Shown here in pieces: positions 10,779 through 35,712 of a DNA stretch of 64,000 nt. The position numbers were made by a program, and so were the translations under genes. This stretch comes from Candidatus Saganbacteria bacterium. GTDB lineage: Bacteria > Margulisbacteria > WOR-1 > JAPLLA01. How positions within the stretch are numbered: the first letter of the stretch is position 1; every line of letters begins with the position of its first letter. Below the pieces are notes generated by a model. That model had not been told where the DNA came from and made no database searches. It saw nothing but the letters and a program-made list of their open reading frames with translations. The stretch is taken from positions 2,972 to 66,971 of the forward strand of contig JAPLLA010000019.1 of NCBI GenBank assembly GCA_026387795.1. Reading direction: 5' to 3'.

Positions 10779-11246
10779 TTGAAGTGTCCTTTTTGTGGCA
10801 AAAAAAACGATCGAGTACTGGAATCGCGAGTTGCGGAAGAAGGGTTGGCAGTCAGAAGGCGCCGCGAATGCGTTGGGTGTAAGGAACGCTTTACTTCCTA
10901 CGAGCGGATAGAAGAAAAGCCCCTCTGGGTGATCAAGCGCGACGGCCGCAAGGAGACTTATTCCAGGGAAAAACTGTTAAGCGGGGTGGTGAGGGCGTGC
11001 CACAAGCGATCAGTAGCGCTTAGTGCGGTAGAAAGATTGGTTTCCGAAGTAGAAAAACTTTTACATAAAGAAAAAGGGCGGGAGGTTAAATCTTCAAAAC
11101 TTGGCGAACTCACCCTAAAAAAGCTTAGAAAACTGGATTCCGTAGCCTACGTGAGATTTGCCTCTGTTTACCATCAATTTAAAAACCCCGAAGAGTTTTT
11201 TATTGAAATGAAGAAATTATTATCCGGGGGGCGTCGTGGCAGATAG
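10779..11246 (+). CDS. nrdR: transcriptional repressor NrdR
   Basis: 155 aa; N-terminal zinc ribbon MKCPFCG...CxxC followed by an ATP-cone domain; TTG start. Confidence 0.9.
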   Translation: MKCPFCGKKNDRVLESRVAEEGLAVRRRRECVGCKERFTSYERIEEKPLWVIKRDGRKETYSREKLLSGVVRACHKRSVALSAVERLVSEVEKLLHKEKGREVKSSKLGELTLKKLRKLDSVAYVRFASVYHQFKNPEEFFIEMKKLLSGGRRGR

Positions 11247-13280
11247 AGAAAAGAAAGGAAGTGCGGCAATGAATCCAATGGCAGTAGCGGACGAAATAAA
11301 AAAAGAAGATTCAACGGACTTGGCTTTGTTTGTAAGAACCTCGGGAGACGATATTATTGCCTGGAACAGGCAGAAGATTGTGGAAGCCTTGATCCGGGAG
11401 ACCGGGCTGGCCAGAGAAATAGCGGACCAGATTGGATGTGAAGTGGAAGACGAAATGAAGAAGATGAACCTTAGGTTTGTTACTTCCCCGCTTATCCGCG
11501 AGCTGGTAGATGTAAAACTTTTGGAACACGGTGAAGAAGAAGCGCGGCGCAAGCATACCAGACTTGGCACCCCGCTTTATGATGTGCAGCAGCTCATTGT
11601 CAACGCCAACAAAGAAAATGCCAATGTCCCACATGGTCCCGAAGCCACCAACCTGACCCTTGCTGAAAACATTAAAAAAGAATTTGCCCTACTTTCGGTT
11701 TTTGCCCAGGATGTTGCTGATGCACACATGCGTGGCGACCTGCACCTGCATGATTTGGGTTTTATAGACCGCCCTTATTGCAGCGGACAATCCGTGGAAT
11801 ATGTAAAAAAATTCGGGCTCGACCTTCCAAACGCGCTTTCAATAGCAAAACCGGCAAAACACGCAGAAGTTTTGCTTGCACAAATGGTTAAATTCTCTGC
11901 TGCACTCCAGGGAGTGTTTGCCGGTGCAATTGGCTGGGATGCGGTAAACCTCTTTTTTGCTCCATTTTTAGAAGGGATGTCAGACGCAGAGATTAAGCAG
12001 ATTGCACAAATGATGATCTATGAATACAGCCAGCAAGCAGTGGCCAGGGGAGGGCAGGCGATTTTTTCAGACATCAACATATACTGGGAAATTCCCAAAC
12101 ACTTTGAAAATGTTCCGGCAATCGGCAAGGGGGGACAGTATACGGGCAAGGTTTACGGAGACTACTTAAAAGACGCACAGAGGTTTGCTTGGGCATTATT
12201 TGACGTATATATGGAAGGAGACGGCTCCGGTCGTCCCTTCTTTTTCCCAAAACCGCTGGTGCACATGACTGAAAAGTTTTTTAAAACCGAAGGCCACCAA
12301 GAATTCTTATTGCATATTTCCAAAGTCGCCACGGAAATGGGGAACACTTATTTTGTGTTTGACCGGGGAGAAACCGCCAAGATTTCCGAATGCTGCCGTC
12401 TCTCTTTTAAGCTGGAGCAGTCGGATCTGGATGATGCCAAAGAACCGTGGAGGATGCGCTATTCCGCTCTCCAAAACGTAACCATCAACCTCCCCAGGAC
12501 AGCATTTAAAGCAGAGGGAAGCGATGAAAAACTCTTTGTGCTGATAGGAGAAATGCTGGAACTGGCAGCTACTGCACACGTACAAAAGAAAAATTTTATT
12601 GAAGCGCTCTTGGCCAAAGGTACAAGCGGACCGCTTTCCATGCTAGCCATGAAGCGTGATGGCCAGCCGTATCTTAGGATGTTTAGAGTAAGTTATTTAA
12701 TGGGCATTTTGGGTCTCAATGAACTGGTGCAAGCACATATTGGCAAAGAGATGCATGAAAGCGACGCAGCTCTAAAACTGGGGCTCAAAGTAAATTCTTT
12801 TATGAAAATAAAATGCGACGAACTTTCCAGAAAGCACGGAATCCATTTTGTGTTGGAGCAAACCCCGGCAGAATCCACTGCCTATCGTTTTGCAAAACTT
12901 GATATTGCGCACTACCCTGAACAAGCCAAAAGAGTGGTAAAAGGGAATTTTGCTACAGGTGAAATTTATTACACTAATTCCACTTATTTCAATGAGAAAG
13001 CAAGCCGAGCCCTGCAAGCATTGCCAATTTTGTCATCAAGACCTTCCGTGAAACACAAAACACGCAAATTGCTTTTTCCCCGGAATTTACTTCCTGCAAC
13101 GACTGCGGGAAGATTGTAAGAGGACTAAAAGATCGCTGCCCTTATTGCAGTTCCGAGCAAATCGAAGGGATTACACGTATTACCGGGTATTTTTCAAAGA
13201 TTAAAGGATGGAATCGCGGTAAGACAGGGGAACTCAAGGAACGTTTCCGCGTCGGCACATTTTTTGAGGCATCATGTTAA
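11236..13280 (+). pseudogene. nrdD: anaerobic ribonucleoside-triphosphate reductase paralog (copy 1) with an internal ~95-nt out-of-frame deletion
   Basis: collinear with the intact copy at 13274-15367 up to ...YYTNSTYFN; then frame A reads a non-homologous tail ending at 13119 while frame +2 continues ESKPSPASIANFVIKTF...CNDCGKIVRGLKDRCPYC...RITGYFSKIKGWNRGK (Zn ribbon and glycyl-radical motif) to 13280; the ~32 aa VGNPMNLIDRVKQEGLFHPLIDAGALTHIWLG present in copy 2 are missing. Confidence 0.55.
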
Positions 13281-15367
13281 AACCCGAGATGCTCCAAGAG
13301 GAGAAAGAAGCGACAGATTTAGCTGTTTTTGTCCGCACTTCCACAGAAGATATGGTGGAGTGGGACAGGGAAAAAATTATTGGCGCATTGGTCAAAGAGA
13401 CGGGACTGGACCGGGAAATAGCAAAGATCATTGGTATCGAAGTTGAAAAGCAGATCCGCTCTATGTCTGTAGAAGTAATCACAGCACCCTTGGTTAGAGA
13501 ACTTGTAGATGTTAAGCTTTTGGAATATAAGCTGGAAGAAGCCAGAAGAAAGCATACCCGCTTGGGGGTTCCGGTTTACGACGTAAAAAGGATTATTTTT
13601 CACAAAAACAAAGAAAATGCCAATACTCCGCACTCCCCGGAAGCCACCAACCTGACCCTTGCGGAAAACATTAAAAAAGAATTTGCTTTAATGAATGTCT
13701 TTTCCCTTGATGTGGCAGATGCCCACATGCGCGGAGACATCCACCTCCACGACCTTGGTTTTGTAGACCGGCCTTATTGCAGCGGCCAGTCTATTGAATA
13801 CGTAAAAAAATTCGGGCTTGATCTTCCGGGTGCACCTTTTTCCGCAAGACCAGCGGAAGATGCGGATGAGCTGATTTCTCAGATCGTTAAGTTTTCAGTT
13901 GGGCTTCACAGTTTTTTTGCAGGAGCAATTGGCTGGGATGCCGTAAATATGTTTATGGCCCCTTATCTGGAAGGGTTGGGTTACGGCCACGTTAAAAAAC
14001 TGGCCAAGAAGTTGATTACGGAATTTGCGGCTGTGGCTGTGGCTGGCGGGGGGCAGGGGCTTTTTTCGGATTTAAATATTTACTGGGAAACTCCCAAGCA
14101 TTTTGAACAAGTCCCGGCTATAGGAAGGGAAGGGAGATATACCGGCAAGACTTACTCCGAATATTCCAAAGAAGCTCAGGAATTTGCCAAAGCGATGTTT
14201 GAAGTTTACAGAGAAGGGGACGGGGCAGGCAGGCCTTACTTTTTCCCAAAGCCATTGGTTCACATTACAGACAAATTTTTTAATACTCCCGGGCACGAAG
14301 AGTTTCTCAATTTAATCAGCGCAGTGGCTGCAGAAAAAGGGAACACTTACTTTGTTTTTGACAGGGGAGAGACCGCAAAAATCTCTGAATGCTGCCGCCT
14401 CTCTTTTAAACTGGAATATTCCGATCTGCAAGATGCCAAAGAACCATGGAGAATGCGCTATAGCGCCATCCAAAATGTTTCCATAAACCTTCCGCGCATT
14501 GCTTACCTGGCAGAACACGACAACGACCGGCTTTATAAAGAGATAGGGAGGTTTTTGGAAATAACCACAGCTGCACACAGGCAAAAGAAAAAATTTATAG
14601 TTGAGCTTTTAAACGAAGGTCCAAACGGGCCACTCTCCCTTTTAGCTACAAACCGTGACGGCGAAACGTACCTTAGATTGCGCCGCGTTACTTACCTTAT
14701 TGGCATGGTGGGTTTAAACGAAATGGTCCAATATCATTTGGGGAAAGAAATGCATGAAACATCCGAAGCATTAAAGCTTGGGCTCAAAATCATCTCTTTT
14801 ATGAAATTAAAATGCGAAGAGCTTTCGGAAAAATACGATATGCATTTTGTTTTGGAACAAACACCCGCAGAATCCACTGCGTATCGTTTTGCAAAGCTGG
14901 ACATGAAACACTTTTGTGTGGAAGCCGAGAAAGTGATGAAAGGAAATCTGGCGAACGGTGAAATTTATTATACCAATTCCACCTATTTCAATGTTGGGAA
15001 TCCCATGAACCTGATCGACCGCGTTAAACAAGAAGGGTTGTTCCACCCGTTGATTGACGCGGGTGCTCTTACCCACATTTGGCTGGGAGAATCACAGCCG
15101 GACCCGGAGTCTATTGCAAATTTTGTGGTCAAGACTTTTAACTCTACCCAAAATTCGCAGATTGCTTTTTCACCGGAATTTACAGTTTGCGGGGATTGCG
15201 GAAAAACCAGCCGCGGGTTATACTCTACCTGCCCGTTTTGCGCATCTGCGCACATCGAAGGAATCACTAGAATCACGGGCTATTTCTCGCGTGTTGCGGG
15301 CTGGAACAAAGGGAAAATCGGAGAGTTAAAAGACCGTCACCGGACCCAAGTCTTAAAGGAGGGTTAA
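13274..15367 (+). CDS. nrdD: anaerobic ribonucleoside-triphosphate reductase (class III RNR), intact copy
   Basis: 697 aa; C-terminal CGDCG...CPFC zinc ribbon and RITGYFSRVAGWNKGK glycyl-radical motif. Confidence 0.9.
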   Translation: MLKPEMLQEEKEATDLAVFVRTSTEDMVEWDREKIIGALVKETGLDREIAKIIGIEVEKQIRSMSVEVITAPLVRELVDVKLLEYKLEEARRKHTRLGVPVYDVKRIIFHKNKENANTPHSPEATNLTLAENIKKEFALMNVFSLDVADAHMRGDIHLHDLGFVDRPYCSGQSIEYVKKFGLDLPGAPFSARPAEDADELISQIVKFSVGLHSFFAGAIGWDAVNMFMAPYLEGLGYGHVKKLAKKLITEFAAVAVAGGGQGLFSDLNIYWETPKHFEQVPAIGREGRYTGKTYSEYSKEAQEFAKAMFEVYREGDGAGRPYFFPKPLVHITDKFFNTPGHEEFLNLISAVAAEKGNTYFVFDRGETAKISECCRLSFKLEYSDLQDAKEPWRMRYSAIQNVSINLPRIAYLAEHDNDRLYKEIGRFLEITTAAHRQKKKFIVELLNEGPNGPLSLLATNRDGETYLRLRRVTYLIGMVGLNEMVQYHLGKEMHETSEALKLGLKIISFMKLKCEELSEKYDMHFVLEQTPAESTAYRFAKLDMKHFCVEAEKVMKGNLANGEIYYTNSTYFNVGNPMNLIDRVKQEGLFHPLIDAGALTHIWLGESQPDPESIANFVVKTFNSTQNSQIAFSPEFTVCGDCGKTSRGLYSTCPFCASAHIEGITRITGYFSRVAGWNKGKIGELKDRHRTQVLKEG

Positions 15368-15368
15368 A

Positions 15369-15686
15369 ATGGGAGAGCAACAGATTGATATTAAGGTGTT
15401 TGGTAAACCGGGCTGCGAATATTGTAAGACCACCATGAAAAAGTTTGAGACCTTCCTGGACCGGTGGGAGATAGAAGACTCCAAAGTAGCTTTAAGTTTT
15501 TTTGATATGGAAACAGTAGACGGTTTGGCAGAAGGGGCTTTTTATTCTGTAACCAAGATCCCTGCCACTGTAATTGAAAAGCAGGGAGAACAACTCGGTT
15601 TTTGGCACGGCCAAGTCCCGATCTCAAAAGATTTTGAAAAGTTTTTTGAAGAGCTTAGACCAGTGTCAGCAGTAGAGATTAACTAG
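15369..15686 (+). CDS. glutaredoxin/NrdH-like thioredoxin-fold protein
   Basis: 105 aa; CEYC redox motif near the N-terminus; immediately downstream of nrdD. Confidence 0.55.
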   Translation: MGEQQIDIKVFGKPGCEYCKTTMKKFETFLDRWEIEDSKVALSFFDMETVDGLAEGAFYSVTKIPATVIEKQGEQLGFWHGQVPISKDFEKFFEELRPVSAVEIN

Positions 15687-15694
15687 GTTAAAAA

Positions 15695-16576
15695 CTAATC
15701 TAAGCAGAGTTTATAACGGGTAGACTTATTTTGCCCTTCTTTTGTGACTAATTTATTTTTTATCAACGGAACAATAATCTGATTTATTCTTGAACGTGTA
15801 AGACCCATGGTTTTTTGTAATTCTTTTACTCCTATTAGGGGTCGATCTTTTAAGGTTTTTATTAGTTCTTCTTGTCTAGGAGAGAGAGTTAGCGTGCATT
15901 TGGAGGAGACCTGTAATTCTTCAATCCGTTTTTTTGTTTTTCCTAAGGTTGCAACAATTCCTTCGGCAACATATTCAACCCAATGGGTTAAATTGTTGTC
16001 CAATTCGCGGGTTTGCTGGATTTTTTCATAATAGTATTTGCGGTTAGAAGCGAAAAAATCATCTAGGCTAAGAATGTGATTTGTATCGATTCCCCATTGA
16101 TATATAATCCAGGCCCCAACCGCCCTGGCTACCCGGCCATTCCCGTCCGAAAAAGGGTGGATAGAAACAAAACGATGGTGAAAGATTGCTCCTACAATTA
16201 CACCATGCAAGATTTTTGTTTTTGAAGAGTTTAGCCATTCAAGGAGTTCGTGCATTAGTTTTGGGGTTTGCTTGGGAGTGGGAGGGGTGTAAATACGGAT
16301 TCTATTTTCATTGACCACATAGTTTTGCTTGGTTTTGTAGCTCCCAGTTTTTTGGTTTGGTAGTAATTCCTGCATAAGCATTTTGTGCAGGAGAAAAAGG
16401 GCGGATTCTGTTATTTGTGACTGGGAATGTTTTTCTATCCAGCACAAGGCTTTTAGGTAGTTGGTGATCTCTTTTTCGTAGTGCAGGGGGATTTTTAATT
16501 GTTCCCCTTGTTCCAGGGCTTTGACTTGTGCCAGGGATAAAGGGTTCCCTTCTATTGAAGTAGAAGAGTGGGCCAA
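15695..16576 (-). CDS. fic: Fic family protein (AMPylase-type fold) with C-terminal winged-helix domain
   Basis: 293 aa; canonical Fic motif HPFSDGNGRVAR; C-terminal HTH-like segment. Confidence 0.85.
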   Translation of the reverse strand: MAHSSTSIEGNPLSLAQVKALEQGEQLKIPLHYEKEITNYLKALCWIEKHSQSQITESALFLLHKMLMQELLPNQKTGSYKTKQNYVVNENRIRIYTPPTPKQTPKLMHELLEWLNSSKTKILHGVIVGAIFHHRFVSIHPFSDGNGRVARAVGAWIIYQWGIDTNHILSLDDFFASNRKYYYEKIQQTRELDNNLTHWVEYVAEGIVATLGKTKKRIEELQVSSKCTLTLSPRQEELIKTLKDRPLIGVKELQKTMGLTRSRINQIIVPLIKNKLVTKEGQNKSTRYKLCLD

Positions 16577-16636
16577 GTGCGCTCTGGTCTCTTTTTGAAG
16601 TTAAAGCAAGGCACATACATGGTAGCCATTATACAT

Positions 16637-16669
16637 TTGCGTCAAGTTTGCGTCAAGGGTTGCGTCAAG
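16637..16669. promoter_or_regulatory. three direct repeats of TTGCGTCAAG at ~11-12-bp spacing upstream of fic
   Basis: copies at 16637-16646, 16648-16657 and 16660-16669; lies 60-95 nt upstream of the fic start on the minus strand. Confidence 0.6.
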
Positions 16670-16672
16670 GGC

Positions 16673-17350
16673 TTATTTGGAGATCCTTTTTAGCAGTGCT
16701 TGCGGATTGTCTTTAATGGCTTTTATGATTGCTTCTTTTTTTAGCCCAGCCGCTTTTGCTACAGCGTAAGCTTCTATTTGTGTAATGAGTCCAGTTTCGC
16801 TATGTGCATCGGTATTAACCAGGAGGTCTGCGCCCCAGGCAGTAGCTATGGCTGCCACGTGTTTGTTGCCGAGCTTGTGTCCATGCTTGGCAGAGAGCTC
16901 CAGGTAAATCCCATGCTGCTTGGCAAGCAAGGTGTCTTCTTCTGTAATTTCCCCTGGATGCGCCAATATGTCTACTAATCCTTTTAGCTTTACTGCAGCG
17001 TGGTTGGTTCCCGGATAAACAGGTTCTACCGGACTTTCGCCGTGGACAATAACAATCTTTGCCCCAAGCTGTTTGGCTTTTTCCGCATAAAAAGGTATTT
17101 GGGATGGAGTAATGTAGCTTAGCTCTACCCCAGGGATAACCGTAATCCCAAGTTCCGGGCCTTGTTCATTTACAAATTTTAGGATGCTTTTTATGACGAA
17201 TTCAAAATTTGATGCATCCACGTGGTCAGTGATGGCAATTGCAGCATGGTCACGGATTTCAGCTTCTCTAACCAGTCCGGCAGGCAGCAGCAGCCCGTCG
17301 CTTAAAGTAGTGTGGCTATGAAATTCGATCCTTTTGCCCAAATCCTGCAT
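16673..17350 (-). CDS. PHP-domain metal-dependent phosphoesterase
   Basis: 225 aa; N-terminal IEFHSHTTLSDG typical of the PHP (histidinol-phosphatase-like) fold. Confidence 0.7.
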   Translation of the reverse strand: MQDLGKRIEFHSHTTLSDGLLLPAGLVREAEIRDHAAIAITDHVDASNFEFVIKSILKFVNEQGPELGITVIPGVELSYITPSQIPFYAEKAKQLGAKIVIVHGESPVEPVYPGTNHAAVKLKGLVDILAHPGEITEEDTLLAKQHGIYLELSAKHGHKLGNKHVAAIATAWGADLLVNTDAHSETGLITQIEAYAVAKAAGLKKEAIIKAIKDNPQALLKRISK

Positions 17351-17402
17351 GTTTTTATTCTAACACATTGAAATTTACTTTAATACTTGCCGATAGTAAC
17401 TT

Positions 17403-18164
17403 ATGCTAGAACTGGTTAGTAATGTTAAGCAATTTGCTTCTAAGCAGGAATGGGAATATGCTTGGCATGTTTATGGGAAAGCTTTGGGTAAAAGAAATAC
17501 TCCTGCGCCTGCAAAGCAATGTGATAGGGTAGAGGGAGACTTTCCTAGCTGGGAAAAGGGATGGATTCAGCAAGGGATAACAGTCATGGCGCACCTGGCC
17601 AATGGAATGGACCCTCCGGAAGCCAGCTACCTGGCATGGCTGGCAACTTCAAAAAGCGTATTTTCACAGCTTCCAATAGCAGTATCAGTTGATTTTAGTC
17701 CCACTCCAAGAGCGCTTCGGGCAATTTTGGCGTCGGCCACAGATCCAGCAGCAAGTGAAATCTGTTATGCAAAGTTTATGGCAGGCTTGTCCGGCATCCA
17801 GCGGCGATACCCAAGAGCTTTAATGGTGATGACAGACAGTAGTGTTCAACCCCACAATTGGGACCGCTATCCAAGAAAACCAGAAGAGCTTCTCAATGGG
17901 ATTGCATATCCTTTTGCTGGGGTAGCACTGGCAAAAACAGATTTTCTTTCGCCAAAAGATGGGGCAACTCCTACCCATGAGATGTTCCATTTATTGGGTT
18001 TTGCAGGGCACCATGGTAACTATGCAGTGCCAGGATACCCGGAAGAAGAATGCGTGATGCAGCGTTATCCTAAAACTACGCACTTGTGCCGCAGGGATGG
18101 GGATGCCTTGAGGGCTTTTTGGGGCGGAGTGGAAGAGACCACAGGGAGGCGGTTTTTGCTGTGA
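17403..18164 (+). CDS. hypothetical protein with HExxH zinc-metallopeptidase-like motif
   Basis: 253 aa; THEMFHLLGFAGHHG motif. Confidence 0.4.
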   Translation: MLELVSNVKQFASKQEWEYAWHVYGKALGKRNTPAPAKQCDRVEGDFPSWEKGWIQQGITVMAHLANGMDPPEASYLAWLATSKSVFSQLPIAVSVDFSPTPRALRAILASATDPAASEICYAKFMAGLSGIQRRYPRALMVMTDSSVQPHNWDRYPRKPEELLNGIAYPFAGVALAKTDFLSPKDGATPTHEMFHLLGFAGHHGNYAVPGYPEEECVMQRYPKTTHLCRRDGDALRAFWGGVEETTGRRFLL

Positions 18165-18306
18165 AAAATATTTGTTTAAAACTGAAATTTCCGGCAAAAT
18201 TGCACGATATATATATAGAAGAGAGTAGCAAACGAGCATTTGCTATATTTGTTTAAACTAAAAAACGCCTGAGCCTGTTCGGGCGTTTTTTTATGGAGGG
18301 GTAGAG

Positions 18307-19185: not shown

Positions 19186-19191
19186 AAAGCT

Positions 19192-20124: not shown

Positions 20125-20125
20125 T

Positions 20126-20815
20126 TTAATCTTCCCTGGAGCTGCGTAGCGCAATCAAGCGGATCAGGTTAAGGACTGCCATGGCAGTAGCTGCAACGTA
20201 AGTAAGGGCAGCGGCATTAAGTACTTGTTTTGCCATAGGAAGCTCTTCTTGGTTCAAGTATCGCCCATCTCCAAGCAAAGCAAGGGCGCGCTTGCTGGCA
20301 TTGAATTCAACTGGCAGCGTGATGAGCTGGAAAGCAACTGCCAGGGAAAAAGCAATGATCCCCAAATCCATTAATGGCCCATAGCTCATGAGTAGCCCTA
20401 TAAAAAACATAGGCATGGCTAGGTTAGATCCAAAGCTGGCTACAGGAACAAAATTGTTTCTAATTTTTAAGGGTGCGTAGTTTTTGGCATCTTGCAAAGC
20501 ATGGCCTACTTCGTGTGCAACCACACCCAAAGCAGCAACAGAGTGATCAGAATAGTTTGTTTCTGAAAGCCGCAGTTTTTTGTCCCTGGGGTCATAATGG
20601 TCGGAAAGGTCTCCAGGAATGGACTCAACTGCTACTTCTCCTATCCCGCCTTTGGACAAAAGTTCTCTTGCCAGCTGTGCCCCGGTTATACCCGAAGAAG
20701 CTTGTACCTGGGAATACTTTGCGTAGGTCCCTTTCACCTTAAACTGGGCATAGATTGCCAAGATAATCGCCGGAATTAATAATAAAAAAGTTGGATCATA
20801 AAACATTTTAAACAC
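20126..20815 (-). CDS. YugP-like neutral zinc metallopeptidase (membrane-associated)
   Basis: 229 aa; HEVGHALQ zinc-binding motif; hydrophobic N- and C-terminal segments typical of the family. Confidence 0.8.
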   Translation of the reverse strand: MFKMFYDPTFLLLIPAIILAIYAQFKVKGTYAKYSQVQASSGITGAQLARELLSKGGIGEVAVESIPGDLSDHYDPRDKKLRLSETNYSDHSVAALGVVAHEVGHALQDAKNYAPLKIRNNFVPVASFGSNLAMPMFFIGLLMSYGPLMDLGIIAFSLAVAFQLITLPVEFNASKRALALLGDGRYLNQEELPMAKQVLNAAALTYVAATAMAVLNLIRLIALRSSRED

Positions 20816-21515
20816 CCCTCAACGTTATATTTGGAACATATACTTTACCAGCTTCGGCAAAAACTTTCAATTCGTCGGCTTCATAGGGCTTAATGGTCTC
20901 AAAGCTTTTATCCAGGGTTTCTTTGTTTACAAATTGCTGCAGGACCACTCTTTTTGCTTTGGGAATGGCTTTTAGCATTTCAATAATAGATTCTTTATTA
21001 TGCAGGGTTGGGACTACGGTGAGCCTAAATTCATGGTCGACTTCAGCATTTATAATCACATCGATGCTTTCTTTGATTTTAGCAGGATCGGCTTTGACTC
21101 CGCTTGAGAGATCATATCGTTCGTCCAGCGGACCCTTGTAGTCCATGGCAACATAATCTACCAGCTTAGAATTGATCAATTCTAAAAGCATTTTCGGATT
21201 GGTGCCGTTAGTATCAAGCTTTACCAGTAATCCTAATTTTTTAAATCTTTTACAGAGCTCTGGCAGCCAAGTATTCAAGGTAGGTTCCCCTCCCGTGATT
21301 ACAATCCCGTCTATAAAATCTTTTCTTTCTTGTATAAAAGCCTCGATATCCTCAATTTTGATTTTCTTCATCTTTTCCGGTCGGGTAATTAGAATGCTGT
21401 TGTGGCAAAAAGGGCAGCGGAAGTTGCAGCCTGGGATAAAAAGCACAGAAACAATCTTGCCGTCCCAGTCCAAAAAAGAGGTCTCTAAAAATCCGCGGAT
21501 ATCAAAATCATTCAT
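20808..21515 (-). CDS. radical SAM activating enzyme, NrdG-like (anaerobic RNR activase family)
   Basis: 235 aa; ...LFIPGCNFRCPFCHN CxxxCxxC radical SAM cluster motif typical of glycyl-radical activases. Confidence 0.6.
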   Translation of the reverse strand: MNDFDIRGFLETSFLDWDGKIVSVLFIPGCNFRCPFCHNSILITRPEKMKKIKIEDIEAFIQERKDFIDGIVITGGEPTLNTWLPELCKRFKKLGLLVKLDTNGTNPKMLLELINSKLVDYVAMDYKGPLDERYDLSSGVKADPAKIKESIDVIINAEVDHEFRLTVVPTLHNKESIIEMLKAIPKAKRVVLQQFVNKETLDKSFETIKPYEADELKVFAEAGKVYVPNITLRGV

Positions 21516-21963
21516 TGCGATGTTCTTTGTGGATATACTTGTGCTCTACTTCGCGCAGGATCTGTAAGGTGAAAAGGATAAAGACAGTAGCAGCAATTGC
21601 GCCCATATAGAAATTACATCCTACTGCCATGCCAATCATAGACGCTCCCCAAATTGAAGCAGCAGTAGTCAGCCCTATTACAGATCCGCCAGCTTGGAAA
21701 ATTGCCCCCGCACCCAGAAATCCAATCCCAGCTACTACCCCTGCAGCAATCCTTCCGGGGTCTCCTCCTGGAGCAAGTTGTGCCATGTAGATAGACATTT
21801 GCATGGCCAGGCAAGAGCCAATGGCAACCAGGGTGTGCGTTCTAAGTCCGGCTACTTTCCGCTCTTTTTCCCTGAAGTATCCGATCAGTCCGCCCAAGGC
21901 CAAGGCCAAAACCAGGTTGGTCATGATCTGGATGTCATTTAAGTTTAAAAATGGGATGTTCAT
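21508..21963 (-). CDS. MgtC/SapB family membrane protein
   Basis: 151 aa; N-terminal ...LALGGLIGYFREKERKVAGLRTHTLVAIGS matches the MgtC family. Confidence 0.75.
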   Translation of the reverse strand: MNIPFLNLNDIQIMTNLVLALALGGLIGYFREKERKVAGLRTHTLVAIGSCLAMQMSIYMAQLAPGGDPGRIAAGVVAGIGFLGAGAIFQAGGSVIGLTTAASIWGASMIGMAVGCNFYMGAIAATVFILFTLQILREVEHKYIHKEHRNE

Positions 21964-21986
21964 GTGTTTACCCCCTTTGGCATAAA

Positions 21987-22403: not shown

Positions 22404-22496
22404 GGTAAGAGTAAGCTTAGCAAATTTATGGCGGATCTTACATATAAAAAGTGAAATTTACAGTATCTGTTTTCGATATAATTGCGGAGGGGAAAG

Positions 22497-23798: not shown

Positions 23799-23967
23799 AC
23801 TATCGGATTTGCAATTATAAACCCCTTAATTTTCTGCAATCTGGCCTCAAATTTGTCGATATATATATAAGGGCCTATGGCCCTAATGACAAATGTCCAA
23901 TGTCAAATGACAAATGAAGGCAGAAAAGCTTTGGCATCGCCTTTATTAAGAGCGAGGAGGAATAAAA

Positions 23968-25581: not shown

Positions 25582-25593
25582 TAGGAGCGGAAT

Positions 25594-26739
25594 ATGTTTG
25601 ATCGTGTAATAGTCAGTTGTCCGGTAAAACGACTCGGTTCTCTCATGGACTTTAGCCCTGTGCTTGAGGGGATGAGCAGGTTTTTCCCTGGCAGGACGGT
25701 GCTTGTGCCTATGAGCAGACAAGCAGAACATTTGTGGCGCTATAAACTTGACGATATGAGAGAAAAAGGAGAGGCTCTGGACGTAAGAGGTAATCGGCCA
25801 AATATTATAAGGGAATTGCTGGAAAGACAAAGGGTGCTTGGGATCCCATTGACAGATGATTATGGAACAGGGGCAGAGACTCTTTCCCAAATGCTCAAGC
25901 TTACGCCTGAAGCTGCTTGTTGGGTCGGGAGCAAGGAAACAGAAGACTATTTTAGAAAATGTGCAAGGGACCTTATACCTGTTGAAGTGGCCCCTATTCT
26001 TAAGCAATACTTAAGTCACGTGGTAGATGCCACTCCCCCCACTGTTATTCACGGATCTGTAGCAGTTATCCAAAAAGCACTGGAGCTTTCGGGCCAGGAG
26101 CTTCCTGCAGATTTTAGAGCGCAGCCTCTGGTTTGGACCAGTGACAGGGAAGTCGAGACTGCAGAAGGGTTTTTTCAACGTGGCGGACTGGAAGCAGGAA
26201 GGACCATAGGAATGCATTTGGCCTCTGCCTCATATGATGTGGATAGATTCATATGGCCATGGAGAAATTTTGCGGAAGTAGCAGACCATTTTTTGGAACA
26301 AAATTTTCAAATACTTTTGGTTACAGGTAGTTTTTTTTCTGGAACCCATCCAGGGAGAGACAACTACGCCTGGCAGGATCATCGTGAATTTATGCAAGAG
26401 CTTCAGAAAAAACATCCTTCACGCAGGGAGAACGTAAAACTGTTTTACGGTGATGTTTTAGCAGAAGCAGAAGTGATCAGAAGATGCAGGACTTTTCTTT
26501 CCGCTGAGACAGGGCCTGCACACCTGGCTTCGGCAGTGGGGACGCCAAAAGTTACTATTGCTGCAAGTGAAGACCAAAAGTTTTTTTGGTTGCTCACAGG
26601 TGAACGCGACTTTGGCTTTGTATCGATGCGGGGGAAACAAAGAGGGCATAGAGATATTTTTTCCCCGGAGGTTGATACAGTGATTGAAGCAATGGAGTCC
26701 ATATTAGATGGGAGGACTAGGAGCACAGCTGCCGGATGA
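25594..26739 (+). CDS. glycosyltransferase family 9-like (heptosyltransferase-fold) protein
   Basis: 381 aa; C-terminal ...[22 protein letters not shown] resembles the GT9 signature. Confidence 0.45.
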
Positions 26740-27802
26740 TTGCATCTCCCATTTCGGATGTCCCTACAGCAGTAGGATCGTTTCTGTCCAGCTTCATGTC
26801 GTAAGTAACGTCTTTTCCTTCTCTAATTATATCTGCCACTGCTTTTTCCAGTTTTTTTGCAGCGTCAATTTCTCCCAGATATTCCAACATCAAAACGCCT
26901 GAAAGGATCATAGCAGTAGGATTAACCTTGTTTTGCCCCTTATACTTTGGCGCACTTCCGTGTACTGGTTCAAACAAAGCAATGTCTTTACCAATGTTTG
27001 CTCCTGGTGCAATCCCCAGACCCCCGATTAGCCCTGCACAAAGATCAGAGATAATATCGCCATAAAGATTTGGGAGTACTAATACATCATATAGTTCGGG
27101 TTTTTGTACTAACTGCATGCACATGTTGTCTATCAATCTCTCTTCATATTCTATTTTGCCCGCATATTCTTTTGCTACTTTTCTGGCTTCGTCAAAAAAT
27201 AAGCCGTCTGTAAACTTCATGATGTTTGCTTTGGTTACAGCAGTTACTTTTTTGCGGCCGTATTTTATTGCATAATCAAAAGCGTAGCGCACAATTCTTT
27301 GCGTACAGGCGCGGGAGATGGGCTTAATGCTTATTCCGGAGTGTTCGTTAATGTGGCGGTGGCTAAGTTTTTCAATGGTTTCAATGAGTGTTTCTGTTTC
27401 CGGCTTGTCCACTTCAAACTCGATCCCTGCATACAGATCTTCGGTATTTTCCCTGACAATTACCAAATCAATGTTTTCGTACTTTGAACGCACGCCAACA
27501 TAATATTTTGCAGGGCGCAGACAAACATAAAGGTCCAGCTCTTTTCTTAGAGCAACATTTACGCTCCTAAAACCTTTACCAATCGGAGTAGTAATGGGGC
27601 CTTTGATGGCAACTTTGTTCTTGCGAATAGACTCAATAACGTTTTGAGGGAGGGGTGTGCCTGCTTTTTCCATGATATCCACACCTGCATGCTGGATATC
27701 CCAATTAAACTTTACTCCGGTAGCTTCGAGTACTTTTCTGGTTGTTTCTGCGATTTCTGGCCCGGTCCCATCACCCGGGATAAGGGTTACGTTATAGGTC
27801 AT
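26717..27802 (-). CDS. leuB: 3-isopropylmalate dehydrogenase (isocitrate/isopropylmalate dehydrogenase family)
   Basis: 361 aa; N-terminal [10 protein letters not shown]; adjacent to leuD. Confidence 0.7.
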
Positions 27803-28302
27803 AGCTTGAATCCCCCGTGTTTTTTGAAATGTTCTACCAGCCCGCCATCGGACAATAATGTTTGCATGGTTGGGGGGAGGGGGCTGAATTTTAATTCTTT
27901 ACCTTTGGTCTTATTGGTTACCATCCCCTTATCTAAATCTACTTCTAGATCGTCCCCATCATCAATTCCGTCTGTATCAAGCTCCAAAGCCGGCAACCCC
28001 AAATTAAAAGAGTTGCGATAGAAAATTCTGGCAAAAGATTTGGCCAGCACTGCCGAAATATTTGCGTACTTTATAGCTTGAGGAGCTTGTTCGCGGGATG
28101 AACCGCAGCCAAAGTTTGAGCCCGCTACAATAAAGTCTCCGGGCTGGATCCTTTGATAAAAATTGGGATCCAGGTCTTCCATTACATGCTTTGCCAGCTC
28201 TACCGGGTCTTGGATTTTAAACTTGTAGCGCCCGGAGATAATATAATCCGTATTAATATCGTTATTTTGGCTGAAGCGCCTTGCTTTTCCTTTTAAAATC
28301 AT
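27799..28302 (-). CDS. leuD: 3-isopropylmalate dehydratase small subunit
   Basis: 167 aa; [25 protein letters not shown] typical of short-form LeuD. Confidence 0.85.
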
Positions 28303-28483
28303 TATGAGGGATTATAGCACCCAAAAAAGGAGGGGTCTAGATTCGCAGGCAGTTTTTGAAAAGCATAGTTTTTATAGAAAAATCTCAAATTTTTCACCAA
28401 TTGCGCTATCTCTTATTATTCGAATTTATAAACCCCCCAAATAGATTTGAGTAATTTGGGATCAACGCGAATTAGTGAAATAT

Positions 28484-29482
28484 TTAATTCCAGCCCTGGT
28501 CCCCGGCCCAGAAGAAAAATCCTAGCGGCCAATTCCCAGGCCCGCCCCACCCAATATTAATAACCCCAAGCAGAGGGATGTACATTCTGACCCCCACGCC
28601 CGCCCCGTAAGCAACCCCGCCGTTAAACACATATCCCGCATCCCCAAATCCGTAAAATTGAAGCTTGGTTCCTTTTGAGTTTGGTATTTCAATTACCGGA
28701 GCGCGCAGCTCCATGCTCCCTGCCACAATTCCTGGGCCCATGGCATAGGGATTACTGGAAGCGCGTACATAGGGATTAAGGGGTCCAGCGGTATTATAAA
28801 TATCTCCACCAAAAAGATTGACCCCAAAACCAACTACCCCCCTAAAAGCAAGCACCATTCCTACCGGAAGCTGAACATAAAAACGGCCTTCGTTGTTATT
28901 TGCAAAAAAGAATTGGCTAAATTTTTCCTTCTGATTTTCCGCATTGGTTGTAGACCCAAAGTACGCTCCCCCTGAAACAGAAGTAAGAAAATAATATCCG
29001 GATTTGGGGAGCAGCCAGTTGTCGCGGCCGTCTACTTCGAGCGCTACTTTTAACCCGGGCTGGAAAATTTCATAATTTCCGGATTCCGGAGCAGTATAAT
29101 AAAAACTTGGAGAAACCAGGAGCGTGGTTTTCGGGGCAATTTTTACTCCCAGAGTAATGCTTGCCCCCATAATAGTTTCAAGCGATCCATCGATATAATT
29201 GACCCGGGATGCGCGTTCCGCTTCAAACCTTCCGGATACGGGATGATCTTTTCCAAAAACAAAAAGATGAGGGTCTTCGTAAAAGATGTTGCCGCCAATG
29301 TTGTACATGAACTTATGGCCCGCTGGGAAGAAAAAATGGGTAGTAAGCATCCCGCCTATTTTTTCTCCTCCCCCAAAAAGGTTAAGATATTTTCCTCCTA
29401 AGCCAAAAAGAAACTGGTCTTTTCCTCCCCCGCCTCTTATGGTTAAAGCCCCGGAATAAGGCTCGTCAATTTCCACAACCAA
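28484..29482 (-). CDS. hypothetical Gly/aromatic-rich protein, possible outer-membrane beta-barrel
   Basis: 332 aa; alternating Gly/aromatic beta-strand-like pattern; 29 nt downstream of the 129-aa ORF and in a different frame. Confidence 0.35.
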   Translation of the reverse strand: MVVEIDEPYSGALTIRGGGGKDQFLFGLGGKYLNLFGGGEKIGGMLTTHFFFPAGHKFMYNIGGNIFYEDPHLFVFGKDHPVSGRFEAERASRVNYIDGSLETIMGASITLGVKIAPKTTLLVSPSFYYTAPESGNYEIFQPGLKVALEVDGRDNWLLPKSGYYFLTSVSGGAYFGSTTNAENQKEKFSQFFFANNNEGRFYVQLPVGMVLAFRGVVGFGVNLFGGDIYNTAGPLNPYVRASSNPYAMGPGIVAGSMELRAPVIEIPNSKGTKLQFYGFGDAGYVFNGGVAYGAGVGVRMYIPLLGVINIGWGGPGNWPLGFFFWAGDQGWN

Positions 29483-29510
29483 AGTCCTTTCCCCATCTTT
29501 TTCTACAAAT

Positions 29511-29900
29511 TTAAAGTCTTTTATAACAAAGGTTTTTAAACGTGCTGGCTTCGGAAATCCGTCCGGAAAGCGTGGAAAGATCTGCAGGCAAGGGATCTCC
29601 CGGGTTTAGTCCTGCATAACCCAGTTCACGCAGGATCACTTCGGTTTTTGTTTTTTGTTTTCCCTTTTTGGAAACCGTAATTTTGATGGCATCGATTTTT
29701 TCTTCTTTAATTTCTACTTCCAATTTTTCCTCATTGGCTTTTACGCTTGCAGTTGCGCGTAAGTTGTTTGCCAAATATAAATCTTCTATGGCCCTTTCCA
29801 GGTGTTTTAAAGAAGGGGCGGTCCTGGTCCAGCTTACTGCCAAAAGTATGGCGGAGCGAATTTGCATGGCCGGAAAACGCGTTTCGCTTTTGATTAACAA
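29511..29900 (-). CDS. hypothetical protein, possibly the N-terminal POTRA-like part of a split outer-membrane protein
   Basis: 129 aa; begins at the stop of the TPR gene. Confidence 0.3.
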   Translation of the reverse strand: MLIKSETRFPAMQIRSAILLAVSWTRTAPSLKHLERAIEDLYLANNLRATASVKANEEKLEVEIKEEKIDAIKITVSKKGKQKTKTEVILRELGYAGLNPGDPLPADLSTLSGRISEASTFKNLCYKRL

Positions 29901-29923
29901 AAAATCAGGGAGAACTCCGCTTT

Positions 29924-32674
29924 TTAGTATTTCCAGCTCGTCTTTAAATGCGGTTTTTTGTTCCGAGGTTCCTTCTTTAATTCGTGGTTTCCCCTTGCTT
30001 CGGATATGTGTGCCAGCTCATAAAAAAGGTTTGCAAGTTTTGCAGGGTCTTTTTGGGCCTTAAATTCGTCAATGGTTGCAACATAACCAAGATATGCGCT
30101 TTCGTAGTCACCTAATACCCACAGCTGTCTGCAGGCAACCAAGCGCTCTTCTCCGGAAGAGAGGTCGCGGATTTTTTGATAAGTAATAGTTGCCAGTTTT
30201 TTTAGTGATTCTTTATTCCCTAGTTCCTGCACCAGATCCTGGGATTCTTCTTCCCAGAGCGAAACCAGTATCCCTCCAATCTCGACAAGCTTTTCCCTGT
30301 TTCCCTCTGCCAATTTGAGGGCTTCTTCCCACGCTTTATAGGAAAAAGGCCCAAAAAACCGAATCGCTTTGCCAAACTCCATTAAAGCAGGCAAATTGCG
30401 GTTTGCTGTTGCAACCTTAATATTAACAGCCAAGGTCTCAAGCACTTCTTCTCTTACTGCTTCTTCCGCTCTTTTAATTTTGCGGTCTTTGCTCCCTTCC
30501 TTTTTCTTTACCAAGGCATCCATTATCCGCGAAGAGAGTTGGAATAAATCCATTCCCAAATTCAGATCCAGGGTATCTTCCGCTAAAGTGCGGATTTCTC
30601 CGATACGCTTGATCCCTTCTTCAAAAACCATTCCGCGTACAAGCTCCAGCGCATCTACCAGGGCAGGAGGAGCATTTTTATCTCCTATTTTATCGGTGAT
30701 AAAAAAGAAAAGGTCAAAATAAAGCGAAACAATCTTCAGCATTTCTTCCGTGCTTTTTGCTGCTTTTGCTTTTTCAAAATCTGTGCCGAGTTTTTTTATG
30801 AAGCTCTTTTTAAAGGTCCCTTCTATAATGTAGCCGGCTTGTTGTTTTAGCGCTGCCGCAATTTCCTTGATCCCTTCTATTTCCTCGGGGTTGGTAACGC
30901 TTTTTTCTTTCATTTCCGAGGCTTGCTTTAAAAGCGAGGCGCTTTGCGTAAAAACCGCTTCAACAATATAGAAAAAAACATCGGGACGGTTTTGCTGCTT
31001 GATCAGTTCGGCGGTGCGGTAAAAAGAGCGGCTTTCCAGGTCTACGGCTTTTTTATTGATCTTATCCCATTCCTCTTCAGAATATTTTTTGTTGAAAATT
31101 GCACCGGTCAGCTTTCCTATGGTTTGGGAGAGCAGATAGCTGGGGTTAAAATAAGTAAGGAGTGCGGTTACCCCAAAGTTAAGCAGGGACTGGGCAATGT
31201 TTGGTTTTCCTGCCCGGATCCTGACCAAGTTTGTTTCTGCCTGAGTTTGGATAAAAGCAAAACGGATGTGCAGGTTTGCGGTTAACATGGGATCTTCTCC
31301 TGCTATGGCCAGTGCTTTTTCGTAGTTTTCAAAAGCCTTATCAATATCTCCTCCGGATAAATAAAGGTCTCCCAATTGCATGGCATATTGCGTATTTTTG
31401 GGGGCCAGGGAAACCAGTTTTTCCATAATACGAATCGCATCCGCAGTTTCTCCCATAGAGACATAAAGCTGGCTAATATCAAAGAGCATGCTCACATCTT
31501 CTTTTGCCGTTTTTTCCGCCGATTTAAGCGCAGCTTTCATTGAAGGAATGCATCTGCCCAAGTGGTAGCGTAAATAAGGCTGGTAACCGGGAAGAAACTT
31601 ATTTATCTGCAACAGTGCCAGAAAGATGCTTGCCAATCGTAACTGTAGTCCCGCATTTTCCGGGTTTTTTTCTGCAGCTTCGTCATAGACCTTTACCGCT
31701 GATTCCAGGGACTTGTATGCGTCCATGTATTCTTCCTGTGCCATTAGGATCTTTGCTTTTTTAAGTTCCAGGTCGGCAAAGAAGATTGCTTTTTGTTTTT
31801 CATTTGGGAAAGGGGTTTTTCCCGTAATTTTTATGGTGATTTCTATCCAACCCAAAGCAGAGTCGTATTTTTTGTTTTGCAGGTCAAATTCGGATTCCAA
31901 AAGCAAAAAAGCAGGGACCTCCAGGAGCATTTCCATTGGCACGCATTCGGATAAAAGCCCAAAATCTACCAAAGCGTTTTTTGGCGCAGGGTTTTTATCC
32001 AACGGCAGCTTGCATCCCGCCCTTAGCCCGTTGATTAAATAGTAGTAAGCCTGGTCAAACTTATTGGCGGCGGCAAAAAATCGGTAAGCGTTAAAATAAA
32101 TCTCCGTCAATTCCGGTCCCGATGCCACTGCTTTTTTGACCAGCTCTTCCGCTTTTTCTATTTTGATCTTACCGTTTCCGTAGAGGATAAAAGCAAAGAG
32201 CATAATTAAGTAAGGCTTGTCCGGGGTTTTGACAGGGAGAAGCTGCGCTTCAAATTTAGCAAGCATTTCTTCCCCAAGATCTTGGGAAAGAAGTACGTTC
32301 AAAGCATACAAAAACTTCATGTCCGGGTCCAAAATCTCAAAAGCAGTAACTGTTTTCCCTTCTTTGAGTTTTCCGATTTTTTCCGTGAAGAGTTTATATC
32401 TAAGCTGGATCAGGTCTGTGCGGTTGAGCTGTTCCGGTGACTGGATTTCTCTTTCAATTTCTTCGGCGGTAATAGCGGCAACTGCTCCGCCCGCAAATTC
32501 TATGATTGCAACTATGGTCCCTTGGTTAATTTGTGGTGGGGGAGTTTCTATGGGAGGGGTGGGGGCGGCGGGATCTACTTGTCCTTGTCCTTCTATCCCT
32601 TTTTCTGCAGACTGGGGCAGCGCAGATAAAATGGGCCGAGGTACAAGCAAAGATGTGGCAGTTATACCGCTCAT
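29924..32674 (-). CDS. large tetratricopeptide-repeat (TPR) protein
   Basis: 916 aa; Pro-rich N-terminus then many TPR-like repeats; GAGGAGAGGA SD. Confidence 0.7.
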   Translation of the reverse strand: MSGITATSLLVPRPILSALPQSAEKGIEGQGQVDPAAPTPPIETPPPQINQGTIVAIIEFAGGAVAAITAEEIEREIQSPEQLNRTDLIQLRYKLFTEKIGKLKEGKTVTAFEILDPDMKFLYALNVLLSQDLGEEMLAKFEAQLLPVKTPDKPYLIMLFAFILYGNGKIKIEKAEELVKKAVASGPELTEIYFNAYRFFAAANKFDQAYYYLINGLRAGCKLPLDKNPAPKNALVDFGLLSECVPMEMLLEVPAFLLLESEFDLQNKKYDSALGWIEITIKITGKTPFPNEKQKAIFFADLELKKAKILMAQEEYMDAYKSLESAVKVYDEAAEKNPENAGLQLRLASIFLALLQINKFLPGYQPYLRYHLGRCIPSMKAALKSAEKTAKEDVSMLFDISQLYVSMGETADAIRIMEKLVSLAPKNTQYAMQLGDLYLSGGDIDKAFENYEKALAIAGEDPMLTANLHIRFAFIQTQAETNLVRIRAGKPNIAQSLLNFGVTALLTYFNPSYLLSQTIGKLTGAIFNKKYSEEEWDKINKKAVDLESRSFYRTAELIKQQNRPDVFFYIVEAVFTQSASLLKQASEMKEKSVTNPEEIEGIKEIAAALKQQAGYIIEGTFKKSFIKKLGTDFEKAKAAKSTEEMLKIVSLYFDLFFFITDKIGDKNAPPALVDALELVRGMVFEEGIKRIGEIRTLAEDTLDLNLGMDLFQLSSRIMDALVKKKEGSKDRKIKRAEEAVREEVLETLAVNIKVATANRNLPALMEFGKAIRFFGPFSYKAWEEALKLAEGNREKLVEIGGILVSLWEEESQDLVQELGNKESLKKLATITYQKIRDLSSGEERLVACRQLWVLGDYESAYLGYVATIDEFKAQKDPAKLANLFYELAHISEARGNHELKKEPRNKKPHLKTSWKY

Positions 32675-32730
32675 AGCAACTTCCTCTCCTCATATATATA
32701 TCGACGAAAATGGCGGTAAAATTCAGTTTT

Positions 32731-33934
32731 TTAGAGGTAATTTCGCGGGTCCGCGATCTTTCCTTCGATTACAGAGGCAGCTACAGTGGCAGGAGATGCG
32801 AGGTATATAAACGCATTCGGATTTCCCATTCTACCTTTAAAGTTGCGGTTTGCAGTAGAAATAGCATTTTCTCCGTCAGCAGGTACTCCTTGATGAGTGC
32901 CGACACATGGGCCACATCCAGGCGCAACCACTACGGCATTTGCTTCCACAAAAGTTTCGATCAAACCTTCTTTTAAAGCATCCTTAAAAATCTGCCTGGA
33001 AGCAGGAGCCACTATCAATCTGGTTTCTTTGTTTACTTTTTTACCCTTTAGAATTCCTGCAGCAATCCGTAAGTCTTCCATTCTTCCGTTAGTGCAAGTT
33101 CCAATAAATCCTTCTGCACGGCTTTGCAATTTGCGGTTCGATTTTGGAAACATCAAACTCTTTTACAGAAGCATATTTTGCGTCCGCATCAGGCGATTGA
33201 GGGCTCATTTTTTTCTTAGAATGTTTTTTAACCCAATCTAAGATTTTCTCGTCTGCTTCCATAAGCCCAACCTTTGCCCCTGCTTCTATAGCCATGTTTG
33301 AAATAGTAAAACGCGCTTCAACCGATAGATCGGAAATTACCGGTCCACCAAACTCAATAGCCTGATAAGTTGCTCCGTCTGCGGTAATTTTACCGATGGT
33401 GTATAGGATGAGGTCTTTTGAAAAGACTCCCTTGGGAAGCTTGCCTGTGTAGATAATTTTCATGGTTTCCGGTACTTTGAACCAGAGTTTTCCGGAGATA
33501 ATTCCTGCAGTAAGGTCAGTGGACCCTACGCCGGTTGAAAAAACATTGATGGCACCGTAGGTGCAAGTGTGTGAATCTGCCCCGATTACTAAATCACCGG
33601 GAACAACGTGTCCTTGTTCAGGAACTAACTGATGGCAAACCCCGCAGCCTACGTCATAGAGTACAACTCCTGTTTCTGCCACAAAACTACGGATCTTTTG
33701 GTGGATGGCAGAAACCCCGATGTTTGGGCTGGGAGCACTGTGGTCAATACAGATCGCTACCTTGGATGCATCAAAAGGTTTTTGGCCGTGCATTTTGCGA
33801 AAAGAATCAATTGCAACTCCAGAGGTCCCGTCTTGGCCCATTAAAAAATCTAGGCTGGCAATAACGATGTCCCCGGCATAAGCATCTGTGCCACTATGAT
33901 TTGATAATATTTTTTCGGAGATTGTCTTCCCCAT
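32731..33934 (-). pseudogene. leuC: 3-isopropylmalate dehydratase large subunit, disrupted (two overlapping ORFs)
   Basis: N-terminal ORF 33089-33934 ends ...[18 protein letters not shown]; the C-terminal ORF in another frame continues [11 protein letters not shown]...APGCGPCVG; ~15-20 residues expected between AKP and IGSCTNG are missing. Confidence 0.6.
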
Positions 33935-33936
33935 GA

Positions 33937-34869
33937 TTATTTCCGTTTAGCCCATTGGGTCTTTTCTTTTTGCTGGAGGGTTTTTTCAACTTCTTTGGCT
34001 TTGTTGATAAGGTAGGGGTCGAGCGCTTCGCTCTCCATGACTTCCTGGTAAAGCTTTATGGCTTTAGGGTTTTTCAGCATTTCTGCCAAGTTTAATTTGC
34101 TCCGGTTAACCAGGTCGCTGTATCCGCTTTTTGAAGCAATAATTTCTTTACAAAGCTTTTGTGCTTTTTCAAAATCCTCTTTTTTTGCTCTCCGTATATA
34201 GAGTTCCGAAAGTATTACCTTGCTCTTAATGTAAAAGTAATCGTCCGTACGTTCTTTGAGGATTTTTAATGCGTCTTGGCACGATTTTATTCCGTCGTTT
34301 AACTTGCCGGGCTTGTGGTAAAGAATTAATTCCCCTATTCCCAGGAATGCCCTGGCTCTAAAATACCAGTGCGCTTTTTTGTTTTTTGCCAGTTTTTCAA
34401 AAAGCTTAAGAGCTAAATTGTGGTCGTTTGTGGCATCGCGAGTCATCCGAAGGTCCGCTTCTACTATCACGGCTTTGGCTGCAAAGAAGTTTGCCAGGTC
34501 TTTGCCCAAATGCTTGGATGCGCTATCGCACAGAGCAATCGCATCTGCTATCTCCGCACCCTTGCCGGAAGGGACATAGAGTTCAGCTAAGCCGATTTTG
34601 GCGCGTGCGGTTAAATGTGCGGAGCCGCTGGTTTCAATGATGTTTTGGTAAAGACGCTGTGCCTGCTTATAGTCTCCGCCTTCGCCGCGGCCCACCAAGA
34701 GGTCTGCCATGCCAAACATGATTTCCCGAATGTCCGAACGGTTGGGATATTGGGCAAGGATAAACTTATAGCGCTTGATCGCTTTTTCGATTTTTTCTTT
34801 TTCGGAAGGGGCAGGGAAGCCCAACTCCTGTTGTACTATAAAAGCCATAACCGGCGAAAGAATTCCCAT
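33937..34869 (-). CDS. TPR repeat protein
   Basis: 310 aa; repeated A..Y.....Y-type helical repeats. Confidence 0.6.
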   Translation of the reverse strand: MGILSPVMAFIVQQELGFPAPSEKEKIEKAIKRYKFILAQYPNRSDIREIMFGMADLLVGRGEGGDYKQAQRLYQNIIETSGSAHLTARAKIGLAELYVPSGKGAEIADAIALCDSASKHLGKDLANFFAAKAVIVEADLRMTRDATNDHNLALKLFEKLAKNKKAHWYFRARAFLGIGELILYHKPGKLNDGIKSCQDALKILKERTDDYFYIKSKVILSELYIRRAKKEDFEKAQKLCKEIIASKSGYSDLVNRSKLNLAEMLKNPKAIKLYQEVMESEALDPYLINKAKEVEKTLQQKEKTQWAKRK

Positions 34870-34927
34870 GCTAAAACTCCTTTTGGCAATTGATAATTTA
34901 TTTTATATGATGTAAAATGTTAAGTCA

Positions 34928-35712
34928 ATGATATCGGAAGAACGACTAGCGCAACTTAAAGAGCTGGAAGACAAGATCAGCCTCTCTTTTTTGAATAAAG
35001 GCCTTCTTAACCGATCCGTTACTCATAGTTCTTACGCAAATGAATGGGCGATGCCGTGCTAAAACTTATCATGAGCGAATACCTCTTCAATAAATTTCCC
35101 GCTAAACAGGAAGGGGATCTTACCAAAATCCGGTCCGCAACTGTATCCGATGTAACATTGGCAAATATCGGAAGGCAATTGGGCCTTGGTGACTACCTGC
35201 TTTTGGGGAGCAACGAAGCGCGTACAGGCGGCAGGCGCAGGAGAAGTAACATTGCCAATGCTTTTGAGTCTATTCTGGGGGCCATTTACCTGGATTCCGG
35301 AATCGGTAAAGCGCGCGATTTTGTAATCTCCGCAATCAGCGAAGAAGTGGAAAAAGTGAGCACCGAAGGATTTATCCGCGACTACAAGAGCGCTTTGCAG
35401 GAAATTTCTCAAAAAGAAAAATGGGGGCTACCTCTTTACCGTGTAGTAAAAGAGAGCGGCCCAAAGCACAAAAGGGTTTTTTGGGTGCAGGTAAAAGTAA
35501 AAAACCGGGTGCTGGGACTGGGCAGGGGCGGGAGCAAAAAAGATGCGGAACAAAGAGCAGCTTCTTTTGCTTACGAAAAAATTAAAAAAGAAAAGAAACT
35601 TCCGGAAGAAGAAAAAGCCGGAGGGATTAAAGAACTTTTAGGCACGGTCCGCAAAGGGATCCGTTTCCGTTTAAGGAAGGAGCACAGTGACGATGACGCG
35701 TCTGCTGGTTAA
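34928..35712 (+). pseudogene. rnc: ribonuclease III, disrupted at the catalytic signature
   Basis: ATG at 34928 encodes MISEERLAQLKELEDKISLSFLNKGLLNRSVTHSSYANEW then a stop; the downstream frame resumes at GDAVLKLIMSEYLF... with an intact dsRBD-containing C-terminus; the expected NERLEFL segment between HSSYANE and GDAVL is absent. Confidence 0.6.

Follow-up and report, generated by a model that had tools for sequence, protein, structure and literature searches.

Short internal deletions that interrupt bacterial genes have been described in several different settings. In metagenome scaffolds, local assembly errors produce stretches that are supported by not even one read, and the wrong proteins they encode propagate into databases (Chen et al. 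2020, PMC7111523); such errors are especially prominent with IDBA-UD, and in one example from the same work 13 of them occurred in 1.13 Mb. On the other hand, the pseudogenes of reductive evolution, as found in obligate symbionts and in pathogens recently restricted to a host, show frameshifting internal deletions in recognisable housekeeping genes, which are lineage-wide and accompanied by added substitutions or lesions. Finally, microhomology or replication slippage can remove tens of nucleotides (nt) from within bacterial genes, the deleted segments being bounded by short direct repeats. Here we analyse a window of 64,000 nt (the whole stretch of DNA under study), which is part of a single 67,678-nt GenBank contig from a metagenome-assembled genome (MAG) of Candidatus Saganbacteria, where an initial annotation had reported that nrdD copy 1, leuC and rnc each carry a short out-of-frame deletion and had proposed either genome decay or an assembly or consensus artefact as the cause. 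The three lesions are present, together with three more of the same kind that had been overlooked, and none of the six is seen in any independent assembly of this population that spans a junction. The most probable explanation, to which we give a probability of about 0.8, is that they are errors of the MAG, introduced by local assembly or by the joining of scaffolds, and not mutations of the organism.

Lesions were sized by aligning the window to Logan assemblies of 13 sequencing runs, 12 of them from ENA (ERR15302166, 170, 175, 179, 191, 197, 198, 205, 206, 213, 223 and 224) and one from SRA (SRR20698651), whose contigs were retrieved through an exact-sequence look-up of the intact neighbouring proteins, whereas the genes of the flagged interval were identified from the listing of open reading frames (ORFs) and from family scans with Pfam profiles. 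Tiling by BLAST gave 100.000% identity over 49,120 of the 64,000 bases, save for six clean deletions of 94, 94, 2, 28, 50 and 43 nt (D1 to D6 in the order of the window), which hit five genes, and three single-nucleotide polymorphisms (SNPs). The remaining 14,880 nt, a span that includes two giant genes of 1968 and 1853 amino acids (aa) and a 723-aa gene, lie outside the verified sequence because the exact look-up gave no record for these three genes, whose long ORFs are uninterrupted in the window. All the length differences with respect to the independent assemblies are deletions in the MAG, with no insertion. The five genes are intact in at least seven independently assembled runs, with 100% identical flanking DNA, and the runs that span the junctions with the intact allele are four for D1 and D2, one for D3 and D4, two for D5 and three for D6. 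In these contigs the products are 712 (NrdD1), 342 (Fic), 1406 (TPR), 417 (aconitase large subunit) and 275 aa (RNase III) in length; the intact NrdD1 and RNase III alleles return to essentially full-length Pfam matches, and the score of the aconitase also becomes higher.

The first lesion falls in nrdD copy 1 (11236-13280, plus strand), where 94 nt encoding TSCSMNPIDRVKKEGLFHPLIDAGALTHVWLG (positions 9627-9720 of Logan contig L001) are missing at 12993/12994, which agrees in place and size with the roughly 95 nt of the initial annotation. The frameshifted ORF (11236-13119, 627 aa) corresponds to the GenBank protein MCX5750525.1, and the true C-terminus, with its CxxC...CxxC zinc site and RITGY glycyl-radical motif, runs in another frame to position 13280. 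As a result, the Pfam NRDD match covers positions 1-449 of 562 in the window, versus 1-560 of 562 in the intact allele. The sole truncated protein among the 120 best NrdD homologues (680-714 aa) is the one of the MAG itself. The missing segment can be aligned to the paralogue NrdD2 with no gap, and this, together with the recovery of the Pfam matches in the intact alleles, indicates that the longer NrdD1 allele is the functional and ancestral one. This paralogue, nrdD copy 2 (13274-15367, plus strand), is intact and lies in tandem, with 68% protein identity to the intact copy 1. A collapse between both paralogues during assembly was considered as the cause of D1 and rejected, as the junction shows no long stretch of exact match and the overall nucleotide identity is 67%.

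The tandem pair has some features of its own. It is preceded by nrdR (10779-11246) and followed by a small thioredoxin-like gene, the four genes extending over 10779-15686, and the activase gene nrdG (20808-21515) is found on the opposite strand at a distance of 5 kb. The alignment of the two NrdD paralogues needs no gaps, the glycyl-radical motif is retained by both in the intact population, and the reason for two adjacent class III reductases in this anaerobe is not obvious.

The second lesion, one of those absent from the initial annotation, breaks a Fic-family gene (15695-16629, minus strand) near its 5′ end: another 94 nt (13328-13421 of L001) are lost at 16600/16601, and the shortened ORF (15695-16576, 293 aa) is identical to MCX5750529.1. 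The other two that had been missed affect a single TPR-repeat gene (28484-32674, minus strand), which D3 (2 nt, GT, at 29542/29543) and D4 (28 nt, positions 7219-7246 of contig L005, at 29980/29981) cut into ORFs of 916, 129 and 332 aa, the largest of which (29924-32674) is MCX5750545.1. The gene that had been called leuC, encoding a large subunit of the aconitase / 3-isopropylmalate dehydratase / homoaconitase family (32731-33934, minus strand), is interrupted by D5 at 33118/33119, where 50 nt encoding HQVDNVSPVSEVLGTPI (4031-4080 of L005) are gone, within the 45-60 nt previously estimated and at the same site. It is read as two ORFs on the minus strand, of 281 aa (33089-33934) and 141 aa (32731-33156), and lacks profile positions 275-293, with a change of frame. 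Finally, rnc, the gene of RNase III (34928-35712, plus strand), is broken by D6 at 35044/35045, with a 1-nt ambiguity in the placement. The missing piece encodes FQGSPVYSNERLEL and takes in part of the RNase III signature. The remaining 222-aa ORF (35044-35712) matches the profile from position 40, and the first 39 codons (MISEERLAQ...THSSYANE) are located upstream in a separate frame. In this case the lesion was correctly located in the initial annotation, and its size was underestimated (15-20 nt, against the 43 nt measured). The flagged interval also contains miaA and pyrC.

The deletions belong to the public deposit and were not introduced by later processing, since the truncated products are the GenBank proteins of that same contig. 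In public data, MCX5750525.1, MCX5750529.1 and MCX5750545.1 appear only as singleton clusters, they carry locus tags of the series NT099_* from one contig and the label 'MAG: Candidatus Saganbacteria bacterium', and none of the truncated products occurs in the index of gene positions. Neither the 281-aa fragment of the aconitase nor the 222-aa ORF of rnc, the only two fragments looked up for this purpose, has a protein record, which is consistent with their annotation as pseudogenes. As for the intact alleles, an exact look-up found none of them in a collection of 15 billion proteins, which does not hold those alleles. The species is missing from the GTDB representative genomes, where the nearest entry is WOR-1 RIFOXYB2_FULL_46_45 (Saganbacteria / Margulisiibacteriota; 77% protein identity for the aconitase large subunit), the JGI metagenome contigs gave zero matches by either DNA or protein, and no relevant paper naming the run accessions was found in the literature.

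A programmed frameshift or recoding event does not explain the broken frames, as from 2 to 94 nt of coding sequence are absent outright, and the genes are uninterrupted both in the population and in its relatives. The possibility of genome decay, by which a host-associated or epibiotic lineage of Saganbacteria under relaxed selection would see its housekeeping genes eroded, finds some echo in the proportion of broken genes (5 of about 24 in a 22-kb stretch) and in the intact paralogue of nrdD copy 1, which may make this copy dispensable. Nevertheless, none of the five genes is broken in any other assembly of the very same population (100% nucleotide identity), and the comparison with close relatives that the initial annotation had proposed points in the same direction: other Saganbacteria and WOR-1 genomes show the aconitase large subunit and rnc intact and in the same neighbourhood, as well as a full-length NrdD. 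Moreover, the pathway partners of the aconitase, its small subunit (27799-28302) and the dehydrogenase (26717-27802), are uninterrupted, and there is no lesion and no broken gene in the other 27 kb of Logan-matched window sequence, outside positions 12993-35045. The remnants of the broken genes show no substitutions with respect to the intact alleles, except for two SNPs near D6 and the second lesion of the TPR gene, and this identity indicates that no decay has followed since the lesions arose. Lesions of reductive evolution share with those described here the frameshifting internal deletions, but they are fixed in a lineage and further degraded, whereas these are confined to one assembly and leave remnants identical to functional alleles. 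Decay at the level of the lineage is thus refuted.

The anatomy of the junctions allows a distinction among the remaining mechanisms. None of the six deletion lengths is a multiple of three, a result with a probability of about 0.09 by chance and opposite to what purifying selection would favour. In agreement with the initial annotation, the lesions of nrdD copy 1, leuC and rnc are all frameshifting and lie outside homopolymers, and indeed no homopolymer is present at any of the six junctions, D3 included. Microhomology at the five larger junctions does not go beyond a single shared base, and no direct repeats bound the deleted segments; in this they differ from the slippage deletions of bacteria, which they resemble in their length of tens of nucleotides inside genes, and replication slippage or microhomology-mediated deletion does not fit them. 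As slippage would be expected to leave marks of repeats or microhomology and the arbitrary joining of contigs would not, such mark-free junctions favour an artefact. The location of the lesions inside conserved motif regions, as also claimed before, proved not to be systematic: the segment lost with D5 is conserved to an average degree (44th percentile of the windows in the aconitase), and that of D6 lies in the 4th percentile for rnc, as calculated from three relatives, which leaves the idea of deletions aimed at conserved motifs unsupported.

Some similarities among the junctions were nonetheless detected. D1 and D2 are equal in length, and the 8-mer AAAGCAAG lies 2-3 nt past both of them (12997-13004 and 16603-16610). 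The reverse complement of another 8-mer, AAGCAAGG, is found 13 nt from D4 (29993-30000), this 8-mer being on the opposite strand. The 7-mer AAGCAAG is located at 20 nt or less from D1, D2 and D4, a coincidence that 4% of random site sets match (permutation test for three of five sites having a common 7-mer, p ~0.04). This sharing is probably due to chance, and a role of the common motif as a nuclease or recombinase site was rejected on the grounds that random site sets reach the same level in 4% of the cases.

Of the three substitutions, one (window T, Logan contig G, at 27504) is isolated in the gene of the isocitrate/isopropylmalate dehydrogenase family, and the other two (35013 and 35018) are located in rnc, 27-32 nt upstream of the D6 junction, a position in which contig-end errors are to be expected. 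The arbitrary joining of error-prone contig ends predicts all of these junction features, which would follow neither from replication slippage nor from long-term decay. The process would start with a thin coverage of the population in the source sample of the MAG, from which the assembler would obtain a number of short contigs with small stretches of no coverage between them. A later step of scaffolding, gap-closing or post-processing may have butted the contig ends without Ns, trimmed a misjudged overlap or stripped the Ns, and the outcome of such joins would be clean deletions with arbitrary lengths, which in most cases break the frame. Finally, genes that span the joins would have been annotated by the NCBI pipeline as truncated proteins or pseudogenes. 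In SRR20698651, the sole SRR-prefixed run in which this population was seen, it is represented at 100% identity solely by one 1.4-kb contig (window 53900-55277, locus L103); this short contig suggests a low coverage in that sample, which may be related to the source sample of the MAG, a link that we infer.

A variant of this explanation is post-assembly editing, in which N-gaps or flagged spans would have been removed before submission and their flanks joined. The window contains no N characters, the GenBank proteins are read straight across the junctions, and the deletions are of arbitrary size, the removed DNA being genuine gene sequence in other assemblies, all of which would fit with such editing. 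In any case, there is no direct evidence for this step, and sequence alone cannot separate it from a join made by a scaffolder; as the specific form of the artefact, it seems rather improbable.

The resemblance of the six lesions to the local errors of the published work (PMC7111523) lies in their short scaffold stretches unsupported by other data from the same population, in the entry of truncated proteins into databases and in a probable origin in the scaffolding of short-read metagenomes. Several points weigh against this explanation. Six errors in about 49 kb of matched sequence (about one per 8 kb) represent a much higher density than that of the published example, with roughly 13 in 1.1 Mb, and the errors in that study were judged by reads, whereas the present case is built on assembled contigs. 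A junction cannot arise from de Bruijn contigs by themselves, and a step of scaffolding or editing must be assumed. Moreover, the identical length of D1 and D2 and the presence of AAAGCAAG after both are not predicted by random joins, although the p of the permutation test is only ~0.04. A systematic assembly or consensus artefact, the second cause offered by the initial annotation, fits everything found in this comparison of assemblies and is the probable cause.

On the other hand, the deletions could be a real and very recent haplotype, that is, a sub-lineage dominating the source sample that suffered several double-strand breaks repaired by blunt end-joining of the non-homologous type. The microhomology-free junctions are those that blunt end-joining would leave, the two SNPs beside D6 could be the occasional point errors that occur nearby, and the nine differences (six deletions and three SNPs) all map within 22 kb; besides, a contig built purely by de Bruijn assembly would require the k-mers of the junctions to be present in the reads. 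However, the clustering of the six lesions in 12993-35045 is not significant (range test over matched coverage, p ~0.07), and, given that the rest is 100% identical, a mutational burst made only of deletions would be required to obtain six frameshifting deletions versus three SNPs. Such a lineage would have lost RNase III, an aconitase-family large subunit and one NrdD together and yet dominate its sample, at this density a genome of 2-3 Mb would contain hundreds of broken genes, and the allele is found in no other assembly. A real haplotype is consequently unlikely, if the least unlikely of the alternatives. Its most specific form, a clustered burst of breaks over ~22 kb with blunt end-joining in one Saganbacteria sub-lineage, caught before selection acted, is decidedly improbable; if true, the six-deletion burst would be the bacterial counterpart of clustered break-and-rejoin events in a natural population.

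Other features of the window are also worth describing. The giant ORF of 1968 aa (38278-44184, minus strand) has a central PP2C/SpoIIE-like phosphatase domain, and that of 1853 aa (48466-54027, minus strand) contains a tandem repeat of 216 nt (72 aa) in 3.9 copies, at 51456-52293. The complete products of both are on no contig of the look-up index and have no exact record elsewhere, and the two longest contigs stop at ~37.1-37.2 kb. At the other end, a HATPase_c_2 protein of 320 aa, similar to anti-sigma-factor kinases, and a DUF4325 protein of 94 aa are encoded at 7719-8965 (4352-5595 of L001), just upstream of a Prok-JAB gene, and this pair could form a small module with a regulatory or defence-like role.

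A last question is related to the consequences of local assembly errors, the explanation preferred here, for the use of this genome, and the main interest of the case lies in quality control. MCX5750525.1, MCX5750529.1 and MCX5750545.1 sit in GenBank/nr as ordinary proteins, and they should be treated as erroneous pending a check of the reads. If the figure of six lesions per ~49 kb can be extended to the entire MAG, neither its gene content nor its number of pseudogenes would be reliable, and re-assembly or read correction would be warranted; independent assemblies of the same population offer a quick check on the broken genes of a MAG. In the meantime, to infer from these lesions the metabolism of this member of the Saganbacteria, or a reduced and host-dependent lifestyle, would be misleading.

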